Shown here in pieces: positions 3,457 through 19,658 of a stretch of DNA of 22,867 nucleotides (within the stretch, counting starts at the first letter, position 1; every line of letters starts with the position of its first letter). A model generated the notes under the pieces. It ran no database searches. It was not told where the DNA came from and was given only the letters and a program-made list of their open reading frames with translations. This DNA is from Planctomycetota bacterium (GTDB lineage: Bacteria; Planctomycetota; UBA1135; GCA-002686595). The stretch lies in NCBI GenBank assembly GCA_029259605.1, contig JAJDEV010000081.1, positions 1 through 22,867 on the forward strand. Direction: 5' to 3'. Both the position numbers and the translations under genes were made by a program.

Positions 3457-4059
3457 ATGGACGAGATCTGGGACAAGGTCGTCAGCTGGACGAAGGACGG
3501 ATTCGCGGACTTCACGCTCGTGAAGATCTACATCGGCTGCGCGATCGCCGGCGGAACCGTCCTCATCGGCCAGACCGGCCTGAACCTGTTCGGGCTCGGA
3601 GGGGACGGCGACATCGATCCGGACATCGACGTCGACGACATCGATGGCGGCGACTCGCTGAGCTTCCTGTCGATTCGCGCGCTCGCCGGTTTCCTGACGT
3701 TCTTCGGCCTCATCGGCTGGAAGGGGACGTCGGCCGAGTGGGGCGGAGGGATCACCGCGATCGCCGCGTTCTTCGCGGGCTGCACCGTCATGGTGTTCGT
3801 CGCCGTGATGATGCGCTTCTTCAAGCGCCTCCACTCCTCCGGCACCCTGAACCCCGAGAGCGCGGTGGGCAAGACGGCCCGCGTCTATCTCAAGATCCCG
3901 GGCGCGCACGCCGGCAAGGGAAAGATCACCGTGACCGTTCAAGGACGGTCGGTCGAGTTCGACGCGATGACGTCGGGCGGCGAGCTTCCGACGGGAAGCG
4001 AATGCCGCGTCGTCTCGATGATATCGGAAGGCATATTCGAAGTTGCTCCACTGGTCTGA
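3457..4059 (+). CDS. nfeD: NfeD-family membrane protein (short form: TM helices plus C-terminal OB-fold beta-barrel), partner of flotillin
   Basis: 200 aa. N-terminal hydrophobic helices, an acidic loop GGDGDIDPDIDVDDIDGGD, further TM helices, then a C-terminal soluble region (GKTARVYLKIPGAHAGKGKITVTVQGRSVEFDAMTS...CRVVSMISEGIFEV) typical of the NfeD OB-fold. Sits immediately upstream (18-nt gap) of an SPFH/flotillin gene, as YuaF-FloT does in Bacillus. Confidence 0.75.
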   Translation: MDEIWDKVVSWTKDGFADFTLVKIYIGCAIAGGTVLIGQTGLNLFGLGGDGDIDPDIDVDDIDGGDSLSFLSIRALAGFLTFFGLIGWKGTSAEWGGGITAIAAFFAGCTVMVFVAVMMRFFKRLHSSGTLNPESAVGKTARVYLKIPGAHAGKGKITVTVQGRSVEFDAMTSGGELPTGSECRVVSMISEGIFEVAPLV

Positions 4060-5802: not shown

Positions 5803-6711
5803 TCAGTGCTCCTCGCCCGCCGCTTCGCGCGCGCTGACGATGCGACCGCCCTCGAGCTCCATGTCGCCGGGCGTCTGGATGATGTAGTCGAGCGTGTCCG
5901 GCAGCGCGACGTGCTGCACGAAGTCGCCCGTCGGCACCGCGTGCACGACGCGGTTGGCTTCCGTGTCGGTGCGCTCCTTCAGGCGAATCAGCGTGACCAT
6001 GCGCGCGCCGACCTCGGTCTGCTGCAGCGTGGCGAGGTGCTCCGCGCAGTGTTCGCACGTGCTGCGGTAGATCACCCACAGCCCGTCGAGCGGCAGGTTG
6101 GAGGAGTCCTCCATGCGCGCGTAAAGCGGCGTGTCCCACACGTCCTTGCCGACCCAGTTCTCGATGTCGAGCTCGAGCCACTGTCCGTCGACGGGTCCGC
6201 GCTCGTTCGCCGCGGAGGACGGCGCGTCGCTCGCCTGGCGGTCGAGCACCCACGGCAACACGACTCCGAGCGCGAGCGCGCCGACGACCAGCACGAAGTT
6301 CGCGCCACCGGGCCTGAGGTTCTTCCACGGCTTGGTGACGATCAGGAGCAACAGGAAGGTCGAGTCGATCGCCAGCATGACCCACGGCGGGAGCGTGATC
6401 GTCGACCCGAAGCACTTGCAGCTCTCGTCGCCGATCATCGTGAGGAGCACGGCGTCGAACGTCACGAACGCGCCGATCAGCAGGAGCCAGGCCCAGCGCG
6501 GACGCAGGAACGCGAGCGCCGCGACGCACAGCTCGACCGTGATCGCGAGGTTGTAGGTCAGGCCAAGCTCGAGCGGCAGGTCGCGGACGACCGGCGGCAG
6601 GTCGGCCGGCGTTCCGGCGAAGAGCTTGAACAGCGCGCCGGCGAGGAGCCAGGCGCCCGCGAGGCGCGGGACCAGGGCGGTCAGGGGATTCGTTCTCGTT
6701 GCGTCGCTCAT
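5803..6711 (-). CDS. MauE/DoxX-family redox-associated membrane protein fused to a C-terminal thioredoxin-like CxxC domain
   Basis: The ORF track extends to 6897, but the upstream portion is Arg/Pro-rich. Likely start is the internal Met (MSDATRTNPLTALV...) at 6711. Four predicted TM helices with the Cys-containing motif GDESCKCFG (MauE/DoxX-like), then a soluble domain with WVIYRSTCEHCAEHL (thioredoxin-fold CxxC). Confidence 0.7.
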   Translation of the reverse strand: MSDATRTNPLTALVPRLAGAWLLAGALFKLFAGTPADLPPVVRDLPLELGLTYNLAITVELCVAALAFLRPRWAWLLLIGAFVTFDAVLLTMIGDESCKCFGSTITLPPWVMLAIDSTFLLLLIVTKPWKNLRPGGANFVLVVGALALGVVLPWVLDRQASDAPSSAANERGPVDGQWLELDIENWVGKDVWDTPLYARMEDSSNLPLDGLWVIYRSTCEHCAEHLATLQQTEVGARMVTLIRLKERTDTEANRVVHAVPTGDFVQHVALPDTLDYIIQTPGDMELEGGRIVSAREAAGEEH

Positions 6712-6841
6712 GGTCGATGGTCGGGCCCGGTTGTCCGATGTCGCCGGCGGCTCGTTCCCTGGCGGGGCCCGAGGTTCTTGGCGGCGAAGGATACGGGGTA
6801 CGCTGCACGCCCGCGACCCGCCATACGCCGACCCGCCGCCC

Positions 6842-8404
6842 GTGACCACGCTCTGGACTCTCTTCGAAGCCGCGACCGCCGCGCACGCGGAGCGCACCGC
6901 CGTGCTCGCCGCCGGCGACCCGCGATCCGCGTCGACCTACGCCGCGCTCGATCGGCGCGTGCGCGCCCTCGCGCTCCGGCTGCGCGCGGCCGGCGTCCGA
7001 CCCGGCGACCGCGTGGCGCTCCTCGCGCCCAACGTACCGGCCTACCTCGACGCGACGTTCGCCGTGGCGGGTGTCGGCGCGGTGCTCCAGCCATTGAATT
7101 CGCGCTTGGCCGTCCGTGAGCTGAACGAGGTGCTCGCCGACGCGGAGACGCGCGTGCTCCTCGCGACGGCGGAGTTCGTTCCGCTCCACGCGTCGCTCGC
7201 CGGCGCGGGAGCGTCCGTCCCCTTGCTCGAGCTCGACGGGATCGACCCGGACGAGCACGACCCCGCCTCGTTCCGACCCGACGCTTCGCACGCGACCGAC
7301 CTCGCGCACCTCTACTATACGAGCGGCACGACCGGCCGGCCGAAGGGCGTCATGCTGACGCACCGCAACGTGTGCACGCATGCGTTCGCGGCGATCGACG
7401 AGCTCGAACTGGACGCGTCGGATCGCTGGGGGCACTTCGCTCCGATGTTCCATCTCGCGGACGCGTGGGCGACCGTCGCGATCACGGCCGCCGGTGGCAC
7501 GCACGTCTTCGAGCCGCGCTTCACACCGGAGGGTGCGCTGGACCGGATCGCGAACGCGCGCGTCACGATCACGAACCTCGTTCCGACGATGCTCAACGCG
7601 ATGATCGCCAATCCGCGCGCGCGGGGCTTCGATCCGTCCAGCCTGCGCATGATCCTCTCGGGGGGCGCACCGATCTCGCCGGCGCTGGTCCGGCGCGTGA
7701 TCGAGACCTTCCGGTGCGAGTACGTCCAGACGTACGGGATGACGGAGACGAGCCCGTACCTCACGCTGAGCCTCCTGCACGATCACCTGCGCGAGCTGCC
7801 CGAGGAAGAGGCGCTGCGCTACCGCGCGCGCACCGGGCGGCCGTTCGCGGGAGTCGAGCTCGAGATCGTCGACGCATCGGGAGCGCGCGTTCCGGCGGAC
7901 GATACCACCGTGGGCGAGATCCGCGTGCGCGGCGCGAGCGTATCGCCCGGCTATTGGCGTCGTCCGGAGGAGACGGACGCCGCGTTCCGCGACGGTTGGC
8001 TGCACACGGGCGACCTCGCCGTCGTCGATGACGAAGGCTACGTCAACATCGTCGACCGCAAGAAGGACATGATCGTGACGGGCGGCGAGAACGTGTACTC
8101 GACCGAGGTCGAGAACGCGCTGTCCGAGCACGCGAGCGTGCGCGAGGTCGCGGTCTACGGCGTGCCCGATGCGGAGTGGGGCGAGCGCGTCTGCGCCGCC
8201 GTCGTGCTGCACGGGGACGCCGTGGCGAGCGCGGACGAGCTCGTTGTCTGGTGCCGCGAACGCATCGCCGGATACAAGCTCCCGCGGCACATCGAGCTGT
8301 GTGAAGACCTGCCGAAGACGGCGACGGGCAAGGTGTCCAAGGCGACGCTGCGCGACCGCCACGCGTCGGGCGCGCGAGAAAACCGCCCAATCGATCGGGG
8401 TTGA
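6842..8404 (+). CDS. AMP-dependent synthetase/ligase (long-chain fatty-acid--CoA ligase, FadD-like)
   Basis: Adenylate-forming enzyme motifs: YTSGTTGRPKGVMLTHRN (AMP-binding motif I), YGMTETSP, GWLHTGDLAVVDDEGYVNIVDRKKDMI, and a C-terminal GYKLPRHIELCEDLPKTATGKVSK. Start is uncertain: GTG at 6842 gives a typical N-terminus (TTLWTLFEAATAAHAERTAV). The upstream in-frame extension to 6626/6710 is Arg-rich and overlaps the divergent gene, so I reject it. Confidence 0.8.
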   Translation: MTTLWTLFEAATAAHAERTAVLAAGDPRSASTYAALDRRVRALALRLRAAGVRPGDRVALLAPNVPAYLDATFAVAGVGAVLQPLNSRLAVRELNEVLADAETRVLLATAEFVPLHASLAGAGASVPLLELDGIDPDEHDPASFRPDASHATDLAHLYYTSGTTGRPKGVMLTHRNVCTHAFAAIDELELDASDRWGHFAPMFHLADAWATVAITAAGGTHVFEPRFTPEGALDRIANARVTITNLVPTMLNAMIANPRARGFDPSSLRMILSGGAPISPALVRRVIETFRCEYVQTYGMTETSPYLTLSLLHDHLRELPEEEALRYRARTGRPFAGVELEIVDASGARVPADDTTVGEIRVRGASVSPGYWRRPEETDAAFRDGWLHTGDLAVVDDEGYVNIVDRKKDMIVTGGENVYSTEVENALSEHASVREVAVYGVPDAEWGERVCAAVVLHGDAVASADELVVWCRERIAGYKLPRHIELCEDLPKTATGKVSKATLRDRHASGARENRPIDRG

Positions 8405-8509: not shown

Positions 8510-9820
8510 ATGCAACGATGGATCGGTTGGATCGTGGCGGGGATCGGAACGGTGGTCCTGGTGCTCGTCGGGTTGTGGATGGCGCAGCCGGATCATGCGG
8601 CGGAGGGCGGTGCGGCGACGCGCCCCTTCGTCGTCCCGGTAACGCTCGCGACGCTGGAACGCGGTGACCTGCGGCCGCAGGTCTCGCTCCGCGGACCCGT
8701 GCGCGCCGGCAGGCGCGCGAAGCTCGGGTTCGACACGAGCGGGATCATCAGCGAGCTCGTCGTCGTCGAGGCGGACATCGTCGAGGGCGACGCCACGCTC
8801 GCGCGGCTGCACCGGGGCGACGAGGAGCACGAGCTCGCGTCGGCCGAGGCCGCGTTCGCGCTCGCGCAGCGCCAGCACGATCTGCTGCTCGCCGGCGAGC
8901 GCGATGAGGAGAAGCGCCGCCTGTACGCCGTGCTCGAGGCCACACGCGCCGAAGCCGAGCTCGCACGCCTGGAGGTCGAGCGCGGCGCTAAGCTGCTGGA
9001 GGATCGGATCCTCTCGCAGTCCGACCAGGACCGACGCATGACCGCGTCCAACGCGGCCGAACAACGGCGCGCGGCGGCCAAGGAGGAGTACGAGCAAGCG
9101 CTCGCGGGCGCGCGCTCCGAGGACCTGGCGATCGCGGCGGCCCGCGTCGACGAGGCGCGCGCGCGGGTCTCCTCGGCGAAGCACTTGCTCGGCAAGACCG
9201 AACTCGTCGCGCCGTGGACCGGCTCGATCGTGCAGCGCTTCGTTTCGGTCGGCGACTACGTTTCCGCCGGCGACCCGGTCTTCGAGCTCGTCGACCTGGA
9301 GAACCTCGAGGTCCACATCGAAGTCCCGGCGCGCTTCGCGCCGCGGCTCGGCTCGCACTCGGACGCGCGTTTGCGCATCGACGGCGAGTCGGGGTTCGCG
9401 ATCAACAAGCCGATCGCAGCGACCATCGCGGCCGCCGACGAGTCGGCGCGCAGCTTTCGCGCGATCGTGCGTCTCAACGCGACGGACGACGGCGGGCGGC
9501 ACCTGAAGCCCGGGATGTTCGTCCGCGCCGAGGTCGACCTCGGGACGGTCGAAGACGCGCTCCTGGTCGCGTCCGATTGCGTCCTCGCGAACGAGAACGG
9601 CACCTACGTCGTGCGCGCGGTCGCGGCGGAAGGCGGCGAAGGCGGGCTCGCCGCCGAGTTCGTGCCCGTGCGCGTCCTCGCGCAGGCGGAAGGACGCTCG
9701 GCGATCGCGAGCGAGTCGGTCGATCTCGCCGCGGGCGATCGGATCGTGCTCACCGGCGGGGACAACGCGTTCCCGGGCGCGACGCTCGTGGCGCACGAGC
9801 GTCCAGAGGCGGCCGAATGA
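8510..9820 (+). CDS. Efflux RND periplasmic adaptor subunit (membrane fusion protein, HlyD/AcrA family)
   Basis: 436 aa. N-terminal TM anchor (WIVAGIGTVVLVLVGLWMA), long coiled-coil hairpin (AEAAFALAQRQHDLLLAGERDEEKRRLYAVLEATRAEAELARLEVER...), lipoyl/beta-barrel segments (LVAPWTGSIVQRFVSVGDYVSAGDPVFELVDLENLEVHIEVPA) and a C-terminal MP domain. Stop overlaps the start of the RND permease (ATGA). Confidence 0.85.
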   Translation: MQRWIGWIVAGIGTVVLVLVGLWMAQPDHAAEGGAATRPFVVPVTLATLERGDLRPQVSLRGPVRAGRRAKLGFDTSGIISELVVVEADIVEGDATLARLHRGDEEHELASAEAAFALAQRQHDLLLAGERDEEKRRLYAVLEATRAEAELARLEVERGAKLLEDRILSQSDQDRRMTASNAAEQRRAAAKEEYEQALAGARSEDLAIAAARVDEARARVSSAKHLLGKTELVAPWTGSIVQRFVSVGDYVSAGDPVFELVDLENLEVHIEVPARFAPRLGSHSDARLRIDGESGFAINKPIAATIAAADESARSFRAIVRLNATDDGGRHLKPGMFVRAEVDLGTVEDALLVASDCVLANENGTYVVRAVAAEGGEGGLAAEFVPVRVLAQAEGRSAIASESVDLAAGDRIVLTGGDNAFPGATLVAHERPEAAE

Positions 9821-12800
9821 ACCCGATCCAAGCCTCGGTCAATCGACCCTACACGGTCGCCGTCGCGGTCATCCTCACCGCGCTCTTCAGCGCGATGGCC
9901 GTGCGGCGCATTCCGGTGCAGCTCAAGCCGACCGTCGACACGCCGCGCATCTCCGTGAACACGAACTTCCGTGGCGCGAGCGCGTCGGAGGTCGAGGAAC
10001 AGGTGACGCGCGAGCTCGAGGACGTGATGCAGAACGTCCAGGGCCTCGCCGAGATGACGAGCACCTCGAGCCAGGGCTCGAGCTCGATCACGCTCGAGTT
10101 CGACCACGGCTTCGACACGCAGGTCGGCCTCGTCGACGTGATCAACAAGCTCAACCAGGTCCCCAGCCTGCCCGAGGAAGCGGACGAGCCGATCGTCTCG
10201 ATCGCGAGTGCCGGCGATCAGCAGGTCGTGAACTGGATCATGGTTCGGTCGCGCTACGACCCGAACAAGGTGCGCCGCATCGTCGAGGACGAGGTCAAGG
10301 CACGCATCGAACGCGTTCCGGGCGTGTCGTCGCTGTTCGTGGTCGGTGGCGCCGAGCGCGAGATCCAGATCCGCATCGACACCGAGCTGCTCGTCGCGCG
10401 CGGCGTGACGTTCGACGACGTGTTCGCCGCCGTCCGCGGCGCCAACGTCAACGTGCGCGGTGGAACCGTCGAGACGATCGGGCGCCAGCCGGTCGTCCGC
10501 ACCGTCGGCCGCGCGGACCGCGCCGTGGACCTCGCGAGCATCATCGTCAAGGAGCTGCCCGCCGGCGCCGTGCGCTTGACCGACGTGGCCGAGATCGTCG
10601 ACGGCTTCCGCGAGAAGTCGGGTTTCGTGAACATGAACGGCAAGGCCGCCACGGGGATGGGCGTCCGACGTCAGGTCGGAACGAACGTCGTCGAGCTCAT
10701 CGAGCGCATCGATGAGGAGATCCTCGCGATCAACGCGGACTTCTCCGTGCGCGGTATCGACGTCGAGCTGTGGCCTGTCTATCGCGAGACGACGTACATC
10801 AACGCCGCCATGGGTTTCGTGAAGCAGAACATGGGCTTCGGCGCGTTGCTCGCGGTCGTCGTCCTCTTGTTCTTCCTGCGCAGCCCGCGCTCGGTGCTGA
10901 TCGCTTCGGTCACGATTCCGATCTCGCTCGCCGCCGTCTTCCTCGTGCTGCTGTGGGCCGACCGATCGCTGAACGTGATCAGCCTCGCCGGTCTCGCGTT
11001 CGCGAGCGGGATGGTGGTCGACAACGCGGTCGTCGTGCTCGAGAACATCTTCCGCCACCTCGAGATGGGCAAGTCGCGCGTGCGCGCCGCGGTCGATGGG
11101 GGGCGCGAGGTGTGGGGCGGTGTGCTCGCGTCCACGCTCACGACCGTCGCCGTCTTCATCCCGATCCTGCTCGAGGCGGACGAGGCGAGTCAGCTCTTCA
11201 CGGATATCGCGCTCGCGATCTCGGCCGCCGTCGGGTTCTCGCTCGTCGTCGCGCTCACGGTCGTCCCCGTGCTCTCGTCGCTCCTCTTCAAGGAGCGCGC
11301 CCCCGACGACGGTCCGCGGCGTGACGGTCCGGTCGGTCGCATGTACGCGCGCTTCTGCGATTGGCTCGCGACGCCGCGCGCCGGCGCCGTGCCGGCCAAG
11401 GCCGGGTTCGTGATGCTCGTCGCGGCCGGCGCGATCGCCGCGGTCGGCGTGGCGCCGCCGGCGGAGTACCTCCCGACGGGGAACCGCAACCTCATCATGT
11501 TCTTCGCGGACCCGATTCCGGGCACGCGGCCCGAAGCCATCGCCGAGAACTACCGTCCCTTCGAAGAGTGGGTGCTCGCGCAGCCCGAGACCGAGCGCAT
11601 GTTCACGGTCTCCGGCGGCTTCAACGGCGGGGGCATCGTGCTCAAGGACGAGTTCGCCGACGGCGCGTCGCTCGCCGCGTTCCACGGGAAGATGTTCGGG
11701 CCCGGGTCGATGCTGCCCGGCTTCCGCTTCCTGGTGCCGGTGCGTTCCAGTCTGTTCGAGAACCCGGGCAAGCAGTTCGAGATCGAGCTGTCGGGACCGG
11801 ACCTCGCGCTGCTCGAGGGAGCGGGCGATGAGCTGCAGCGTTTGCTCCGTTCGGTCTCCGGCGTGGAGTCGATCCGCAGTTCGCTCGTCTCGGGGCAACC
11901 CGAGCTGCGTGTCGTGGTCGACGAGGTGCGCGCGAAGAAGCTCGACCTCGACGTGGCCGAGATCGGTCGCATCGTCGAGGCGGTCGTCGCCGGTCGGCGC
12001 GTGACCGAGATGCTCGACGGCGGACGCGAAGTCGACCTGAACGTCGTCGCGCCGCAGGCGCACGTCGGCTCACTCGAAGACCTCGCCGGGGTTCGCTTCC
12101 GGACGAAGTCGGGCGACGTCATCGCGCTCGGCGACGTGGCGACGATCACGCAAACCGCCGGGCCGCAGTCGATTCGCCGGCTCGAGCGCGTGCGCAATGC
12201 GCTCCTCACGGTGAACATCGCGCAGGACGCACCGCTGGAGGCCGTGCTCGAGCACGTCGAGCAGGAGGTCTTCCCCGTGGTGCGCGCGCGGCTCGGTCCA
12301 GCCTACAGCATCCGCTTCGGCGGCTCGGCCGACGCGCTGCGCCAGTCGCTGTCGTCGCTTTCGTCCGGGTTCGGCTTCTCGGTCCTCATCATCTATCTGT
12401 TGCTCGTCGCGCTGTTCAGGAGCTGGGTCTCGCCGTTCGTGATCCTCGTCTCCGTTCCGCTCGCGCTGTCGGGTGGCTTGATCGCGATTCGCCTGGCGAG
12501 CGACTGGACCGGCGGCGCGGCGTCGTTCGACGTGATCTCGATGCTCGGTTTCGTGATCCTCGCCGGGCTGGTCGTGAACAACGCGATCCTGATCGTGCAC
12601 CAGGCAAACAACTTCCGCGACGAGGGCATCGAGCGTCGTCGCGCACTCGCCGAATCGGCCAAGTCGCGACTGCGTCCGATCCTGATGAGCGTGACGACGA
12701 CGGTCGTCGGCATGACGCCGCTCGCGTTGGGGGGCGGCGCGGGCGCGGAGCTCTACCAAGGGCTCGGCGTCGTGATCGTCGGCGGCCTGCTCTGCTCGAC

Positions 12801-12927
12801 GCTCTTCACGCTGTTCCTCGTTCCGGTGCTCATCAGTCTCGGATACGACGCGAGCGACTGGGCCCTCGCCCGGCGCGGCGCTCCGGCGTCGCGCGACGGC
12901 GACACGGTGCAGCCGGCGAGCGCGTAG
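9817..12927 (+). CDS. Efflux RND transporter permease subunit (AcrB/HAE1-like), 12-TM with two large periplasmic loops
   Basis: 1036 aa from ATG 9817 (SD GAGGCGG 6 nt upstream; ATGA overlap with the MFP stop). MNPIQASVNRPYTVAVAVILTALFSAMAVRRIPVQLKPTVDTPRISVNTNFRGASASEVEEQVTRELE is a textbook RND N-terminus. Conserved TM4/TM10 regions (ASGMVVDNAVVVLENIFRHLE; ILAGLVVNNAILIVHQAN). The upstream part of the track ORF (9214-9816) is an Arg-rich artifact. Confidence 0.95.
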   Translation: MNPIQASVNRPYTVAVAVILTALFSAMAVRRIPVQLKPTVDTPRISVNTNFRGASASEVEEQVTRELEDVMQNVQGLAEMTSTSSQGSSSITLEFDHGFDTQVGLVDVINKLNQVPSLPEEADEPIVSIASAGDQQVVNWIMVRSRYDPNKVRRIVEDEVKARIERVPGVSSLFVVGGAEREIQIRIDTELLVARGVTFDDVFAAVRGANVNVRGGTVETIGRQPVVRTVGRADRAVDLASIIVKELPAGAVRLTDVAEIVDGFREKSGFVNMNGKAATGMGVRRQVGTNVVELIERIDEEILAINADFSVRGIDVELWPVYRETTYINAAMGFVKQNMGFGALLAVVVLLFFLRSPRSVLIASVTIPISLAAVFLVLLWADRSLNVISLAGLAFASGMVVDNAVVVLENIFRHLEMGKSRVRAAVDGGREVWGGVLASTLTTVAVFIPILLEADEASQLFTDIALAISAAVGFSLVVALTVVPVLSSLLFKERAPDDGPRRDGPVGRMYARFCDWLATPRAGAVPAKAGFVMLVAAGAIAAVGVAPPAEYLPTGNRNLIMFFADPIPGTRPEAIAENYRPFEEWVLAQPETERMFTVSGGFNGGGIVLKDEFADGASLAAFHGKMFGPGSMLPGFRFLVPVRSSLFENPGKQFEIELSGPDLALLEGAGDELQRLLRSVSGVESIRSSLVSGQPELRVVVDEVRAKKLDLDVAEIGRIVEAVVAGRRVTEMLDGGREVDLNVVAPQAHVGSLEDLAGVRFRTKSGDVIALGDVATITQTAGPQSIRRLERVRNALLTVNIAQDAPLEAVLEHVEQEVFPVVRARLGPAYSIRFGGSADALRQSLSSLSSGFGFSVLIIYLLLVALFRSWVSPFVILVSVPLALSGGLIAIRLASDWTGGAASFDVISMLGFVILAGLVVNNAILIVHQANNFRDEGIERRRALAESAKSRLRPILMSVTTTVVGMTPLALGGGAGAELYQGLGVVIVGGLLCSTLFTLFLVPVLISLGYDASDWALARRGAPASRDGDTVQPASA

Positions 12928-16321: not shown

Positions 16322-17224
16322 ATGGCAACGGGCGAGGACGACGGAGGACCGGCGGCGACGATCGAGATCGTGCGCGGCGACAACCTCGACGTCCTGCGCA
16401 CCCTCGCGGACGCGTCGTTCCAGCTCGTCTACATCGACCCGCCGTTCAACACGGGCAAGCGGCAGCGGCTCACGCGGTTGCGCACGTCGCGCGACGAGGA
16501 CGGGGACCGCGTCGGGTTCGGCGGACATCGCTACCGGTCCGAGCTCGTTTCCGACGTCGCCTATGGCGATCGGTTCGACGACTACCTCTCGTTCCTCGGA
16601 CCGCGACTCGAGGAAGCGCAGCGCGTGCTCGACGCGACCGGCAGCCTGTTCGTTCACGTCGACCCGCGCGAGTCGCACTACGTGAAGGTCTTCCTCGACG
16701 GCCTGTTCGGGCGCGACTGCTTCCAGAACGAGATCATCTGGTCGTACGACTACGGAGCGCGGTCCAAGCGGCGCTGGCCCGCCAAGCACGACACGATTCT
16801 GTGGTACGTGCGCGACCCGAAGAACTACGTCTACCGCTACGACGACATCGACCGCATTCCCTATCTCGCGCCCGGGCTGGTCGGTCGCGAGAAGGCGGCG
16901 CGCGGCAAGACGCCGACCGATGTCTGGTGGAACACGATCGTCCCGCCGAGCGGACGCGAGCGCACCGGCTATCCGACGCAGAAGCCGCTGGCGATCCTCG
17001 AACGCATCGTTTGCGTGCATTCGAACCCCGGTGACCGGGTGCTCGACTTCTTCGCGGGCAGCGGGACGACGGGGGAGGCCGCTTGGAAGCACGGGCGGTC
17101 GTGCGTCCTGGTCGACTCCCACCCGGAGGCGATCCAGACCATGGAGCGCCGGCTGGCCCCCGCGGAGCCCCGCGTGCGCGAGGTCGACCAGGCGGCGGAG
17201 ACCGGTCGCGAAACGGATCGTTGA
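16322..17224 (+). CDS. Site-specific DNA amino-methyltransferase, beta class (N6-adenine or N4-cytosine; N6_N4_Mtase family), orphan
   Basis: 300 aa. Motif IV IDPPFNTGK near the N-terminus and motif I (VLDFFAGSGTTGEAA) near the C-terminus, i.e. the IV-then-I order of beta-class MTases (CcrM/PvuII/RsrI-like); YPTQKPLAILERIV precedes motif I. Starts 3 nt after the M14 peptidase stop. No restriction endonuclease candidate anywhere in the window. Confidence 0.85.
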   Translation: MATGEDDGGPAATIEIVRGDNLDVLRTLADASFQLVYIDPPFNTGKRQRLTRLRTSRDEDGDRVGFGGHRYRSELVSDVAYGDRFDDYLSFLGPRLEEAQRVLDATGSLFVHVDPRESHYVKVFLDGLFGRDCFQNEIIWSYDYGARSKRRWPAKHDTILWYVRDPKNYVYRYDDIDRIPYLAPGLVGREKAARGKTPTDVWWNTIVPPSGRERTGYPTQKPLAILERIVCVHSNPGDRVLDFFAGSGTTGEAAWKHGRSCVLVDSHPEAIQTMERRLAPAEPRVREVDQAAETGRETDR

Positions 17225-17434
17225 ATCCGTTCGACGCGGGCCCAAGAGAGGGGCCGGAGCCCGGCGGTTGTGTGAGCGCGAGTCACGGTTTCCACGACCC
17301 CTCCTCATCGGAAACCTCCGAAGACTCATCGGCTCGCGCTTTCCTGCGCTTCGTGATGGCCTTCTTAGGGATGGAGACCGCCGGGCTCCCCCTCGCCCCC
17401 CGCGCGATCGAAGCCGTTCTCCCGGACGCAGGGG

Positions 17435-17620
17435 CTGCTAGCCCGGGTTATTCATGAGGCTTTGCCGAGATCGACGCAGATGCGCGCCAGATCAGCGCTT
17501 CGCGACCGACGCGCGTGCTGGCGACCTTGACGGGTCGTCGACCCCGGTGAGGGAGGGAAGGGCTGAGATGGCGCGTAGCTGCGTCGATCTCGGTGAAGCC
17601 TCATGAATGATCTGGGCTAG
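17435..17620 (+). repeat. ~185-bp element with ~55-bp near-perfect inverted-repeat arms (17435-17489 / 17569-17620) and a 79-nt central loop, directly upstream of HMGR
   Basis: Core arms TTATTCATGAGGCTTTGCCGAGATCGACGCAGATGCGCGCCA (17448-17489) and TGGCGCGTAGCTGCGTCGATCTCGGTGAAGCCTCATGAATGA (17569-17610) match 37/42 as reverse complements. Four of the five mismatches become G-U pairs on the + strand RNA, leaving one A-G mismatch in 42 bp. Arms extend a further ~12 nt outward (GCTAGCCCGGG / CTGGGCTAG), again with wobble-compatible differences. The element ends 12 nt before the HMGR ATG (17632). Confidence 0.8.
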
Positions 17621-17631
17621 GATGCGCCGCG

Positions 17632-18831
17632 ATGAGCGTGCCCTTGCCCCCGATTCCCCGTCGGCGCGACGACGACCACGGCCCCGACGCTGTTCGCGAA
17701 CGGATCGAGCTCTGTGAGGAGGTGGCCGGCCGACCGCTGCCCTTCCTGCGCGGCGCCACCGTTCCCTCGGCCGAGGCGCGCGGGAACGTCGAGAACCTGA
17801 TCGGCTACGCCCAGGTTCCGATCGGGATCGCCGGACCGCTGCGCGTCGACACGAGCGCCGGCATCCGTGAGGTGTTCGTCCCGATGGCGACGACGGAGGG
17901 CGCGATGATCGCCTCGTACTCGCGCGGGATGAAGGCGCTCCGCGGCGCGAGCGCGCGCGCGCGCGTCCTTTCCGAGTCCCTGTCACAGCATCCCGTGCTG
18001 CTCTACGCGAACGCGGAGACGTGCGCGCGCGCCGCGGAGATCGCGCGCGAACAGGTGCCGCGGATGGAAGAGTTGACGCGCTCGATCACGACCCACGGTC
18101 GGTTGGTCGGCGTGAAGCCCGAACCGATCGGCCGCCGGCTCGTCCTGTGCCTCTCGTTCTCCACCGGCGACGCGATCGGGATCAACATGGCGGCGCACGC
18201 GGCCGAGCTGTGCTCCGCTCACCTCGCCGAATGCACGGGCGCGACCGATCGCTATGTGCACGGCGAGGACGTGGAGAAGCGTGCGAACACGCGCGCGTCG
18301 ATCGAGGGACGCGGGCGCACGGTCGTGTGCGACGCGACGATCCCGCGCGACGAGCTCGAGCGCGTCCTGCGCGTGACCCCCGAACAACTCGTCGCGATCC
18401 ACCGCACCTACAGCTTCGGCTTCGCGCGCCTGGGGACCGAGAACCAGCTCGTTCAATCCGCGAACGGGCTCGCGGGCGTGTTCGTCGCGTGCGGGCAGGA
18501 CGTCGCGTACGTCACCGAATCGGCGACGGGCGCGCTCGACTTCGAGGTCACTCCGAACGGAGACTGCTACGCGTCCGCGTACTTGCCGTCGCTGCTTGTC
18601 GGCACGGTGGGGGGAGGAAGCGCGCAAGGAACCGCGGCCGAGTGCCTCGCGTTGCTCGGCGTCGCCGGGACCGGCGGCGCCAACGTGTTCGCCGAGTTGA
18701 TCGGCGCGACCGTGCTCGCCGGTGACCTCTCGCTGCTCGCTTCGTTCTGCACGCACGAGTTCATCGCTGCGCACGAGCGTCTCGGACGCAACCGGCCGTC
18801 GACCGCTGCGCGGGGAGGCGACGCGACGTGA
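17632..18831 (+). CDS. Hydroxymethylglutaryl-CoA reductase, class I (NADPH-dependent, catalytic domain only, no membrane anchor)
   Basis: 399 aa. Class I signature blocks: ENLIGYAQVPIGIAGPL (human ENVIGYMPIPVGVAGPL), TGDAIGINM (DAMGMNM) and VGTVGGGS...ECLALLGV (GTVGGGT...ACLQMLGV). No N-terminal sterol-sensing/membrane domain. Confidence 0.9.
   Translation: MSVPLPPIPRRRDDDHGPDAVRERIELCEEVAGRPLPFLRGATVPSAEARGNVENLIGYAQVPIGIAGPLRVDTSAGIREVFVPMATTEGAMIASYSRGMKALRGASARARVLSESLSQHPVLLYANAETCARAAEIAREQVPRMEELTRSITTHGRLVGVKPEPIGRRLVLCLSFSTGDAIGINMAAHAAELCSAHLAECTGATDRYVHGEDVEKRANTRASIEGRGRTVVCDATIPRDELERVLRVTPEQLVAIHRTYSFGFARLGTENQLVQSANGLAGVFVACGQDVAYVTESATGALDFEVTPNGDCYASAYLPSLLVGTVGGGSAQGTAAECLALLGVAGTGGANVFAELIGATVLAGDLSLLASFCTHEFIAAHERLGRNRPSTAARGGDAT
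18813..18819 (+). promoter_or_regulatory. Shine-Dalgarno (GGGGAGG) inside the HMGR 3' end for the downstream coupled gene
   Basis: GGGGAGG 8 nt upstream of GTG 18828. HMGR stop TGA (18829-18831) overlaps that GTG (GTGA). Confidence 0.5.
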
Positions 18832-19658
18832 GCCGTTCGAAGAAGGAAGGCGCCGAGCCGTGGGTTCCGTGCGCGTACGCGCTGGTCGGCCTCACCGCGC
18901 TCTCGTTCGTGATCCTCGGAAGCCGCCCCGGCGGGCCCATGCCGACGTGGATCTACACGCGCGGTCTGATCGCCCTCGGGATGACGTCGGCGCTCTTGCT
19001 CGCGACGGCGCTCGCATGGAGCGCCTATCGCCGGCCGTTTCTGCAGCGCGGTCGCCTCGGCGGCCTCGCGTCCGTCGCCGGCGTGCTTTGGGTCGCGTCG
19101 TTCCCGCTCGCGTATCCGTCGTCGCACGACGGCCACCCGAGCCGGGTGGCCTTCCGCGTTCCGTTCGAGGGCGAGTGGATCGTCCGCGACGCGGGGAACG
19201 ACCGGATGGGGAACACGCTCGTGCTCCACCCGGCGACGCGCTTCGGCTACCGCTTCAAGCCGGCCGACGCCGGCTCCGGCGAGGTCGTCGCCCCGGCTGA
19301 CGGGACGGTCGTTCGCAGCGACGAGGCGCGGTGGGTCGCGCGGGTTGCCGAGGGCGAATACCTCGTTCTCGAGGGCCTGGGGCCCGTTTCTGACCCGACG
19401 GGGCCGGCGGCGCGGCACCGCGAGGTCGGGGCCTCCGTCGCCGCGGGGGACGCCCTCGGTCCGGGCGGCTCCGGCCCCGCCGGGCTCGTTCTCTACCTCG
19501 CGGACCAGGACCAGCCCCGGGCCGGCGAGGGCATTCCGCTCCGGTTCTCGGACACCCTGGCCGATGGACGGTCGCTCGGAGCCGCGAATCCGGCCCGCGG
19601 CCAGCGCGTCCGGGCCGTTTCCGAGATTCCGGACGCCGGGGAGCCCTCGCCGCGTTGA
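18828..19658 (+). CDS. Uncharacterized membrane protein (2 N-terminal TM helices) with possible degenerate LytM/M23-like beta-barrel domain
   Basis: 276 aa. GTG start with good SD, overlapping the HMGR stop. TM helices (ALVGLTALSFVILG; LIALGMTSALLLATALAWSA). Soluble part has Gly/Asp-spaced beta-strand patterning reminiscent of the M23/LytM fold (VVAPADGTVV...GEYLVLEGLG...VGASVAAGDALGPGGSGPAGLVLYLA), but without recognisable HxxxD/HxH catalytic histidines. Domain call is low-confidence. Confidence 0.55.
   Translation: MSRSKKEGAEPWVPCAYALVGLTALSFVILGSRPGGPMPTWIYTRGLIALGMTSALLLATALAWSAYRRPFLQRGRLGGLASVAGVLWVASFPLAYPSSHDGHPSRVAFRVPFEGEWIVRDAGNDRMGNTLVLHPATRFGYRFKPADAGSGEVVAPADGTVVRSDEARWVARVAEGEYLVLEGLGPVSDPTGPAARHREVGASVAAGDALGPGGSGPAGLVLYLADQDQPRAGEGIPLRFSDTLADGRSLGAANPARGQRVRAVSEIPDAGEPSPR

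Follow-up and report, generated by a model that had tools for sequence, protein, structure and literature searches.

A MITE-like hairpin repeat, probably inserted at a CTAG site, lies just upstream of the HMG-CoA reductase gene in a planctomycete genome

A long inverted repeat lying immediately before the start codon of an HMG-CoA reductase (HMGR) gene raises the question of whether it belongs to that gene, as an RNA regulator, or came to the locus from elsewhere. The window, by which we mean the whole stretch of 22,867 nucleotides analyzed here, has a G+C content of 68.6%, and from position 3457 onward all of its listed coding open reading frames are on the + strand, except 5803-6897. At the locus, genes for an AcrB-type transporter, TerC, an M14 peptidase, and an N6/N4 DNA methylase (16322-17224) are followed by the HMGR gene (17632-18831, + strand, 399 amino acids; Pfam PF00368, E = 1.3e-83), whose reading frame is intact, and then by a 276-amino-acid protein without a Pfam match and an EF-G paralog. 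The repeat occupies the 407-bp gap separating the methylase and HMGR genes, with HMGR directly downstream. A sequence-only reading of this DNA had taken a G-U asymmetry between the arms as a record of selection on an RNA helix in the HMGR-sense orientation and had named three candidates, namely, an RNase III-processed leader, an attenuator, and a MITE-like element sitting in the HMGR promoter or 5' untranslated region. We favor the last of these, with a probability of about 85%: the inverted repeat would be one copy of a family of MITE-like nonautonomous transposable elements and would have entered a CTAG that lies 11 nt before the HMGR start codon.

The near-complementary arms described earlier are real. 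A repeat search of the window returned inverted-repeat arms of 75 nt each at 17427-17501 and 17557-17631, 80% complementary, within which the well-paired element spans 17438-17620. Its outer stem of 42 bp joins 17438-17479 to 17579-17620, pairing extends inward from this stem to an apical hairpin at about 17519-17540, and the predicted fold of 17438-17620 is a single hairpin of ~88 bp. The last base of the element lies 11 nt before the ATG at 17632. From left to right, the element consists of a CTAG at 17438-17441, which we read as the target site or flanking duplication; a 175-nt hairpin body at 17442-17616 (+ strand; 160 bits and E = 3e-48 against the nhmmer family profile); and a second CTAG at 17617-17620. 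Within the body, the 5' terminal inverted repeat (17442-17479, + strand), or TG arm, carries CATGAGGCTTTGCCGAGATCG at 17453-17473, a 21-mer that is identical in every complete copy of the family described below. The 3' terminal inverted repeat (17579-17616, + strand), or CA arm, pairs with it and has the reverse complement ATTCATGAGGCTTCACCGAGATCG (17585-17608). Away from the ends, no part of the element is better conserved across the family than the apical hairpin GGCGACC..GGGTCGTC (17519-17540, + strand). A small hairpin in the loop had been proposed earlier as CGACG-GGT-CGTCG; a hairpin does exist there, but its register is better given as CGACC(U)/(G)GGUCG.

The strand asymmetry also held up as an observation. 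Folded as RNA, the + strand of the element reaches -156.1 kcal/mol (z = -12.6; none of 200 shuffled sequences was as stable) versus -119.2 kcal/mol (z = -8.2) for the - strand. Placed on the family consensus structure, the + strand of the window copy forms 62 Watson-Crick pairs and 7 G.U pairs with 5 mismatches, none of them an A.C clash, while the - strand forms the same 62 Watson-Crick pairs with no G.U pair and 12 mismatches. Compared arm against arm, the copy shows 9 differences of the G.U type, 1 of the A.C type, and 11 transversions. A palindrome of this kind could in principle be a chance structure or a chimeric fold-back, as errors of assembly can yield long palindromes that look perfect, and the window itself is a contig of a metagenome-assembled genome (MAG). 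Chance is contradicted by the z score of -12.6 against shuffles, and the arms differ at defined positions, which exact fold-backs would not. An independent Logan assembly, the only other public assembly of exactly the same HMGR gene, has the same right arm joined to HMGR and breaks inside that arm, behavior expected of a repeat, and members of the family turn up in four further independent assemblies. These independent copies refute the chance or artifact explanation, whose probability we regard as virtually nil.

Seen from this locus alone, there is something to be said for a cis-regulatory leader specific to HMGR, whether processed by RNase III or acting as an attenuator, in which the G-U pairs would record selection on the sense strand. 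The element is 11 nt from the ATG in the sense orientation and probably lies within a transcript that starts at a conserved leader promoter (see below), its + fold beats its - fold by 37 kcal/mol, and three G.U pairs are private to the window copy, again with no A.C clashes. Against it, scans of 17100-17750 called no sigma-70 promoter and no terminator-like site; the element hairpin is followed by GGAUGCGCC, with no U-tract. Rfam 15 returned no match at gathering thresholds in the window, and at E ≤ 10 the sole match was a chance hit to VA RNA (18 bits, against a threshold of 62).

Further evidence against an HMGR-specific leader comes from orthologous loci. The closest HMGR homologs are 64 to 78% identical and labelled Planctomycetes, and synteny is well kept. 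In the comparison set of 10 syntenic HMGR loci (L002-L007, L019-L021), none has the element upstream of HMGR, either as an inverted repeat or as similar sequence. The alignment reads GCTG-CTAG-(175 nt)-CTAG-GATGCGCCGCGATG in the window and GCG-CTAC-CATGCGCCGCC(G)ATG in L002 and L003, and the flanks of the element rejoin across it: the window's GCTG-CTAG-GATGCGCCGC, in which GATGCGCCGC is the sequence to the right of the second CTAG, corresponds to GCG-CTAC-CATGCGCCGC in these orthologs. The nearest empty sites come from genomes whose HMGR is only 78% identical, and they read a single CTAC rather than CTAG. From this comparison, the element appears to have been inserted at a CTAG-like site, which now stands on both sides of it, and to be polymorphic for presence and absence at orthologous sites, as a mobile element would be. 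Riboswitches and attenuators are recognized by covarying conservation at orthologous loci, which the element lacks and which a separate leader RNA at 17256-17389 possesses. An RNase III-processed leader or attenuator tuned to HMGR is therefore contradicted at 10 of 10 orthologous loci, and so, by the refuting condition set out in the sequence-only reading, is a leader role for the structure.

The element is, in addition, repetitive. Searching for other copies, as had been suggested, and for target-site duplications around them yielded at least 10 copies, every one from MAGs or metagenomes, that are dispersed, mixed in their orientation relative to genes, and bounded by a duplicated CTAG, the pattern that the sequence-only reading had named as pointing to a MITE with no specific link to HMGR. 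A genome scan with the shared 21-mer found at least 7 copies on 7 contigs of one MAG (CAZGTQ01, "uncultured Planctomycetaceae bacterium binchicken_co31_237"), and an arm-pattern scan of JGI metagenomes found 2 further copies in unrelated contexts. In an nhmmer profile search, 9 complete copies and 1 truncated copy were recovered at E = 1e-42 to 1e-66, together with a diverged relative at positions 3634-3818 of L003 that has the same ends (CTAGCCCG...CGGGCTAG) and the same apex but different stems. Copies fall into size classes of 183/184, 197-199, or 213 nt (range, 183 to 213). Identity is 90 to 99% among the copies of the MAG and 81 to 85% between the window copy and the others, falling to 74 to 78% for the L003 subfamily. 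The apical hairpin (A3 columns 101-121) is invariant or nearly so in 10 copies, the diverged L003 subfamily included, and the terminal ~38 nt of both arms are conserved in all copies as CCCGG..ATTCATGAGGCTT[TG/CA]CCGAGATCG. The family is previously undescribed and consists of small noncoding mobile elements in Planctomycetes that form near full-length hairpins.

Other searches delimit where the family was found. A scan of the genome collection with the window-specific arm pattern TGAGGCTTNNCCGAGATCGACG gave no match, nor did a plasmid blastn search with the element as the query, and three scans of viral contigs gave a single chance match with four mismatches (L010). An exact 21-mer in a "Pygmaiobacter" MAG (L013) was considered as the end of a parent insertion sequence (IS) and rejected, being a single arm inside a coding gene and a chance match; we take that gene to encode a methylglyoxal synthase.

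The ends of the copies, which read CTAGCCCGG, indicate the target. CTAG is present at both ends in 8 of the 10 copies, and the other 2 have a variant of 1 to 2 nt at one (left) end. Beyond CTAG, the flanks are unrelated among copies, and the flanking genes are unrelated housekeeping genes. Since CTAG is rare in the 22.9-kb window (7 sites versus ~66 expected from base composition) while TA dinucleotides are plentiful (179), the target is the tetranucleotide. In five copies, a genuine TAG stop codon of the neighboring gene (encoding SSB, FtsY, a DUF2203 protein, an FG-GAP protein, or a MORN-like protein) lies inside the terminal CTAG, showing that CTAG existed before the insertion and was duplicated or regenerated by it. 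Strict CTAG targeting also explains why copies pile up on TAG stops and gene ends.

Whether the duplication would be of 2 bp (TA) or 4 bp (CTAG), the sequences fit equally well. Insertion sequences of the IS5/IS701 type make a 4-bp duplication, and a CTAG duplication of that type fits the ends of the element just as well as a TA duplication. Members of the IS630 family duplicate TA, and IS630 itself prefers a TA inside 5'-CTAG-3', as stated by Feng and Colloms (2007, PMC2170065, with the Tenzen and Ohtsubo references cited there). The likeness to IS630/Tc1-mariner elements is that every copy sits in CTAG, with TA or CTAG on both sides; the difference is that the searches turned up neither an IS630-type transposase nor a full-length element carrying these termini. 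More generally, no transposase or autonomous parent was seen among the neighbors of the copies, in ~45 kb of flanking DNA, or elsewhere in the genome and metagenome DNA scanned. No reading frame stays open across the size classes of the element, and the open frame that it does contain gave no candidate when searched against 5.8 billion proteins.

The properties of the family are those by which MITEs are defined: it is small (MITEs being about 70 to 300 bp) and noncoding, it has terminal inverted repeats and a short flanking duplication, and in CAZGTQ01 it occurs as at least 7 dispersed copies with unrelated flanks within one genome. Like bcr1, ERIC, and Correia/NEMIS, it combines small size (about 100 to 300 bp), lack of coding capacity, terminal inverted repeats, and short flanking direct repeats (PMC3184786; PMC3733652), and like them it is dispersed between genes, close to where these end, and occurs in some related genomes but not in others. 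It differs from them in having no sequence similarity to them (no Rfam match) and in being GC-rich, CTAG-specific, and paired over nearly its whole length, with a polarity common to two diverged subfamilies. Among the candidates named at the outset, the MITE-like element is the one borne out, by the dispersed copies, the CTAG ends, and the orthologous absence.

The strand polarity requires separate treatment, as it was the original argument for selection at HMGR. In each complete copy, one arm reads ...GGCTTTGCCGAG... and the other ...GGCTTCACCGAG..., giving a TG arm and a CA arm; the two arms pair through a U.G and a G.U, both invariant, in columns 26/192 and 29/191 of alignment A3. As all copies have TG/CA arms, the two core wobble pairs are inherited family-wide. 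With the TG arm placed 5', which in the window is the + strand, all 9 main-family copies fold 16 to 34 kcal/mol better as RNA than their reverse complements, and with DNA parameters the TG-first strand is still better by 6 to 14 kcal/mol. The L003 subfamily has the same polarity relative to the apex (-128.1 versus -107.3 kcal/mol). On the consensus structure, the 9 copies have 48 G.U cells on the TG-first strand and 5 on the other. When each column and state is counted once, the distinct events number 17 G.U versus 4 A.C (two-sided binomial P = 0.007); all 7 of the events shared between copies are G.U, and the singleton substitutions alone (10 G.U versus 4 A.C) are not significant. The remaining mismatches on the TG-first strand are mostly purine.purine, tandem G.A among them, and G exceeds C by 11 to 19 nt in every copy. 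The family has about 74 consensus pairs, and complementarity extends along ~85 bp. Two or more kinds of Watson-Crick pair occur at 10 pair-columns: at 42/178, for instance, most copies have U-A, L009 has U.G, and the window copy has C-G.

This polarity is found whatever the orientation of the neighboring genes. The best-folding strand is sense to its neighbors in the window and L015, lies between convergent genes in L012 and L014, and is antisense in L003, L009, L016, and L017, and probably also in L008 and L011, so that orientation is mixed and mostly antisense. Because the polarity is the same in all copies regardless of gene orientation, it must be ascribed to the element itself and not to the HMGR transcript. 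The G-U pairing of the + strand at HMGR would then have been inherited from the family rather than shaped at this locus, and most of the G.U positions are indeed common by descent to copies elsewhere. The claim that the asymmetry reflects selection on an HMGR-sense helix consequently does not survive: all 10 copies share the polarity in mixed orientations, and the TG/CA difference is inherited. Taken with the absence of the element from all 10 orthologous loci examined, these comparisons leave the HMGR-specific leader largely refuted and, in our estimation, scarcely credible. Mutational skew from background replication or transcription was weighed as a source of the G.U bias, and a purely local explanation of this kind was rejected, given that the GC skew of the window is ~+0.02 and that polarity follows the element and not the host strand.

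What has maintained the polarity bears on how the element is recognized. A constraint on the single-stranded form of one element strand, as RNA or as single-stranded DNA during mobilization, is likely, since selection on a transposing lineage acts mainly on whether it can move; the G.U bias may also have been acquired in the family's source lineage. A plain cut-and-paste MITE does not predict what is seen. Such an element needs only its terminal ~20 to 30 bp, yet complementarity has been kept along ~85 bp with a strand-polar bias toward G.U and purine.purine. It is possible, although we consider it unlikely, that the family comprises ~90-bp hairpin elements recognized or selected as one specific single strand, either as single-stranded DNA on which an HUH-type (RAYT/TIRYT-like) enzyme acts, with CTAG as the cleavage and target site, or as a mobile structured-RNA gene. 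Recognition as a single strand would explain the shared polarity, the tandem G.A mismatches, the G-rich strand, and the full-length compensatory pairing in subfamilies that are 74 to 78% identical. To our reading of the literature, no direct description of G-U polarity in bcr1/ERIC-type MITEs was found.

The first of these two forms would make the element similar to a REPIN or PATE, moved as single-stranded DNA by an HUH tyrosine transposase of the RAYT, TIRYT, or IS200/IS605 type, with the polar hairpin as the substrate and CTAG as the cleavage or target site and not a true duplication. Such a mechanism would account for pairing that is specific to one strand, is retained in diverged subfamilies, and shows under DNA folding parameters too, as well as for the upkeep of the whole hairpin, and an element inserted 3' of a CTAG and itself ending in CTAG would mimic a duplication. 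REP/RAYT and TIR/TIRYT systems, for which single-strand mobilization has been proposed, occur in Planctomycetes, where tyrosine transposases with repeat families have been reported, e.g., in R. baltica (PMC3733652). The likeness to REPINs and to the REP-RAYT and TIR-TIRYT systems extends to dispersed extragenic hairpin repeats, often just downstream of genes, with strand-specific structure. REP units, however, are palindromes of 20 to 40 nt tagged with GTAG (or CGTC) at one end (PMC3733652), whereas our element ends in CTAG, carries no GTAG or CGTC tag, and has arms of ~85 nt, and so falls outside the definition. Similarly, IS200/IS605 elements have no terminal inverted repeats, and the PATEs derived from them have no terminal inverted repeats, no target duplication, and separate subterminal hairpins, while the long terminal inverted repeats of our element pair with each other over its whole length. 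The loci flanking the copies contained no RAYT/TIRYT tyrosine transposase gene, and no HUH gene of any kind was seen in the flanking DNA near any copy. If genes follow replication, the best-folding strand is mostly opposite to the lagging-template expectation, although 10 copies are too few to give this weight. For the empty site of a copy, a DDE and an HUH mechanism lead to the same expectation, a single CTAG, and such sites would not tell the two apart. On balance, we hold mobilization by an HUH enzyme to be decidedly unlikely.

In the second form, the element would be a mobile small-RNA gene transcribed from the TG-first strand, whose hairpin RNA is functional for the element or the host, e.g., as an antisense RNA or a processing substrate. 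The G.U pairs, tandem G.A mismatches, excess of G over C by 11 to 19 nt, and compensatory pair changes all falling on one strand are in keeping with this, and there is a precedent in the bcr1 MITE of B. cereus, which is transcribed and is reported to maintain its structure through compensatory changes at the RNA level (PMC3184786). While bcr1 is transcribed, the CTAG family is known here from DNA sequence. An RNA gene is also poorly matched by the lack of promoter-like or terminator-like signals in or beside the element (17100-17750), by the lack of an Rfam match, and by the fact that DNA-parameter folding gives the same polarity, so that RNA is not required to explain it. We therefore regard this as a highly unlikely account of the family.

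The MITE-like reading draws on a repeat family with defined ends, a CTAG target, absence from orthologous loci, mixed orientation, and a family-wide polarity. As we picture it, the element was mobilized in trans by a transposase, and insertion into a rare CTAG would have left CTAG at both ends, through either a 4-bp duplication or an IS630-like TA duplication inside CTAG. One copy would have landed in a CTAG upstream of the HMGR start and downstream of a conserved structured leader RNA.

This leader RNA (17256-17389, + strand), which is not part of the element, is present at 10 of the 10 syntenic loci and shows covariation. It comprises a long-range helix P1 (17256-17267/17378-17389), a long stem P2 (17274-17284/17331-17341) around a GGUUUCC/GGAAACC hairpin whose loop is CCCCUCCUC, a helix P3 (17287-17293/17310-17316), a small hairpin P4, and an invariant strand at 17346-17384, all on the + strand. 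A 38-nt stretch of the leader is almost invariant although the proteins are 70 to 78% identical, and in 6 of 8 distinct leader sequences P1 is directly followed by a GC hairpin and then a T-run. In a covariation test of P1, P2, and P4, from which the variable interior of P2 (holding no tested pair) was removed so that MAFFT kept the stems in register, 97.5% of cells were paired versus 32 to 48% with the partners slid. Double-sided changes occurred in 10 of 26 pairs, and the covariation score was 0.456 versus 0.232 in shuffles, with 0 of 500 shuffles reaching 0.456. The leader had no match in Rfam, even at E ≤ 10, and we found no direct description in the literature of a riboswitch linked to HMG-CoA reductase in Planctomycetes.

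Several features suggest that HMGR is probably transcribed through this leader. Promoter-like boxes (TTGAA, a spacer of 16 to 17 nt, and CAWGAG) precede it at 17221-17250 (+ strand), with sequence and spacing kept in 8 distinct loci; judged by this conservation, they may be the leader promoter, although the sigma-70 consensus scan did not call them. At L020, the distance from the T-run to the HMGR start codon is only ~32 nt, which would leave no room for a separate promoter. If HMGR is transcribed through the leader, then the MITE in the window lies inside the HMGR 5' leader in its well-folding orientation, and the HMGR transcript probably carries an extra hairpin of ~88 bp. In the predicted fold of 17245-17645, the inserted hairpin and the helices of the leader form domains that are independent of each other. 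It is plausible that the inserted hairpin affects translation, processing, or read-through, and it may affect HMGR expression. If the family is recognized as a single strand, a hairpin between a riboswitch-like leader and a start codon could be co-opted to alter HMGR expression. Secondary co-option of the element at the HMGR locus alone is conceivable, and nothing in our data supports it.

The main consequence of these results is that an apparent gene-specific RNA regulator is better understood as the insertion of a mobile repeat, which guards against annotating it as a control element of HMGR. The family itself would be a useful marker in Planctomycetes MAGs and is also a source of assembly breaks, and its consistent strand polarity poses a small question about how the element is recognized, by its double-stranded ends or as a single-stranded hairpin. 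The neighboring covarying leader RNA is a more promising lead than the element. Should that leader prove to be ligand sensing, it would become a candidate for regulating the bacterial mevalonate pathway. The genome of the window would in that case offer a natural variant, with a large hairpin lying between the leader and HMGR.

A conserved, structured RNA lies 5' of the HMG-CoA reductase (HMGR) gene (window 17632-18831, + strand) in a clade of Planctomycetes. It takes the shape of a three-way junction (helices P1, P2, and P4) in which P2 bears a hairpin with a C-rich loop (CCCCUCCUC), and it contains a nearly invariant strand (GCUUCGUGAUGGCCUCCUAGGGAUGGAGACCGCCGG). Conserved promoter-like boxes stand 5' of this leader RNA, and an intrinsic terminator stands 3' of it in most loci. 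Covariation is strong, with 97.5% of cells paired, double changes in 10 pairs, and a score that was reached by 0 of 500 shuffles. The leader and its upstream boxes occupy window positions 17221-17389 (RNA core, 17256-17389) and recur in HMGR loci syntenic with the window (L002, 3016-3204; L003, 4737-4922; L004, 4692-4900; L006, 4720-4924; L019, 2233-2416; L020, 2265-2445; and L021, 2182-2351). The HMGR loci of different synteny (L022-L024) are without it, and comparison with Rfam gave no match. The leader may act as a riboswitch/attenuator or as an sRNA.

The gene slot flanked by the M14 peptidase/MORN gene on one side and the leader on the other varies in content among loci. An N6/N4 DNA methylase gene on the + strand fills it in the window (16322-17224), in L002 (2049-2951), and in L003 (3808-4707), where the gene is split into two ORFs and is for that reason probably a pseudogene. 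A cytidine/dCMP deaminase gene on the - strand replaces the methylase gene in L004 (4114-4581), L006 (4167-4616), L020 (1550-2017), and L021 (1634-2101).

The same region of L003 carries, on the - strand at 3634-3818, a copy of the MITE-like hairpin element that lies 5' of HMGR in the window (17438-17620). This copy represents a second, diverged subfamily, 74 to 78% identical to the main family, with which it shares its ends (CTAGCCCG) and apex but not its stems. The strand polarity of the main family (better folding on one particular strand) and its tandem G.A mismatch are also present. The insertion point is the TAG stop of the MORN-like gene, and at its far end the copy overlaps the methylase gene's called start.

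A Logan assembly contig with an identical HMGR gene (L001, run SRR15505512) begins within the right arm of the window's hairpin element (L001 1-49 corresponds to window 17583-17631), which suggests that the repeat breaks short-read assemblies. The ends of this element account for two of the seven CTAG sites in the window (136, 2410, 3191, 4096, 17438, 17617, and 21935), and two others, at 136 and 21935, overlap stop codons. Base composition predicts ~66 such sites, making CTAG ~9-fold underrepresented; an order-2 Markov model predicts 12.5.

Elsewhere in the window, the longest ORF of the AcrB-type transporter gene (9214-12927) overlaps the HlyD-type gene (8510-9820) by ~600 nt. Its AcrB Pfam match begins only from residue 205, and the true start is therefore probably near 9820.

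Downstream, HMGR is always followed, in the window and the orthologous loci, by a gene for a ~265- to 277-amino-acid protein without a Pfam match (window 18828-19658; orthologs, for example, in L002, 4456-5277, and L003, 6182-6973). The start of this gene usually overlaps the HMGR stop by 4 nt, and an EF-G paralog comes next. The ~265- to 277-amino-acid protein is a conserved partner of HMGR in the window's clade.
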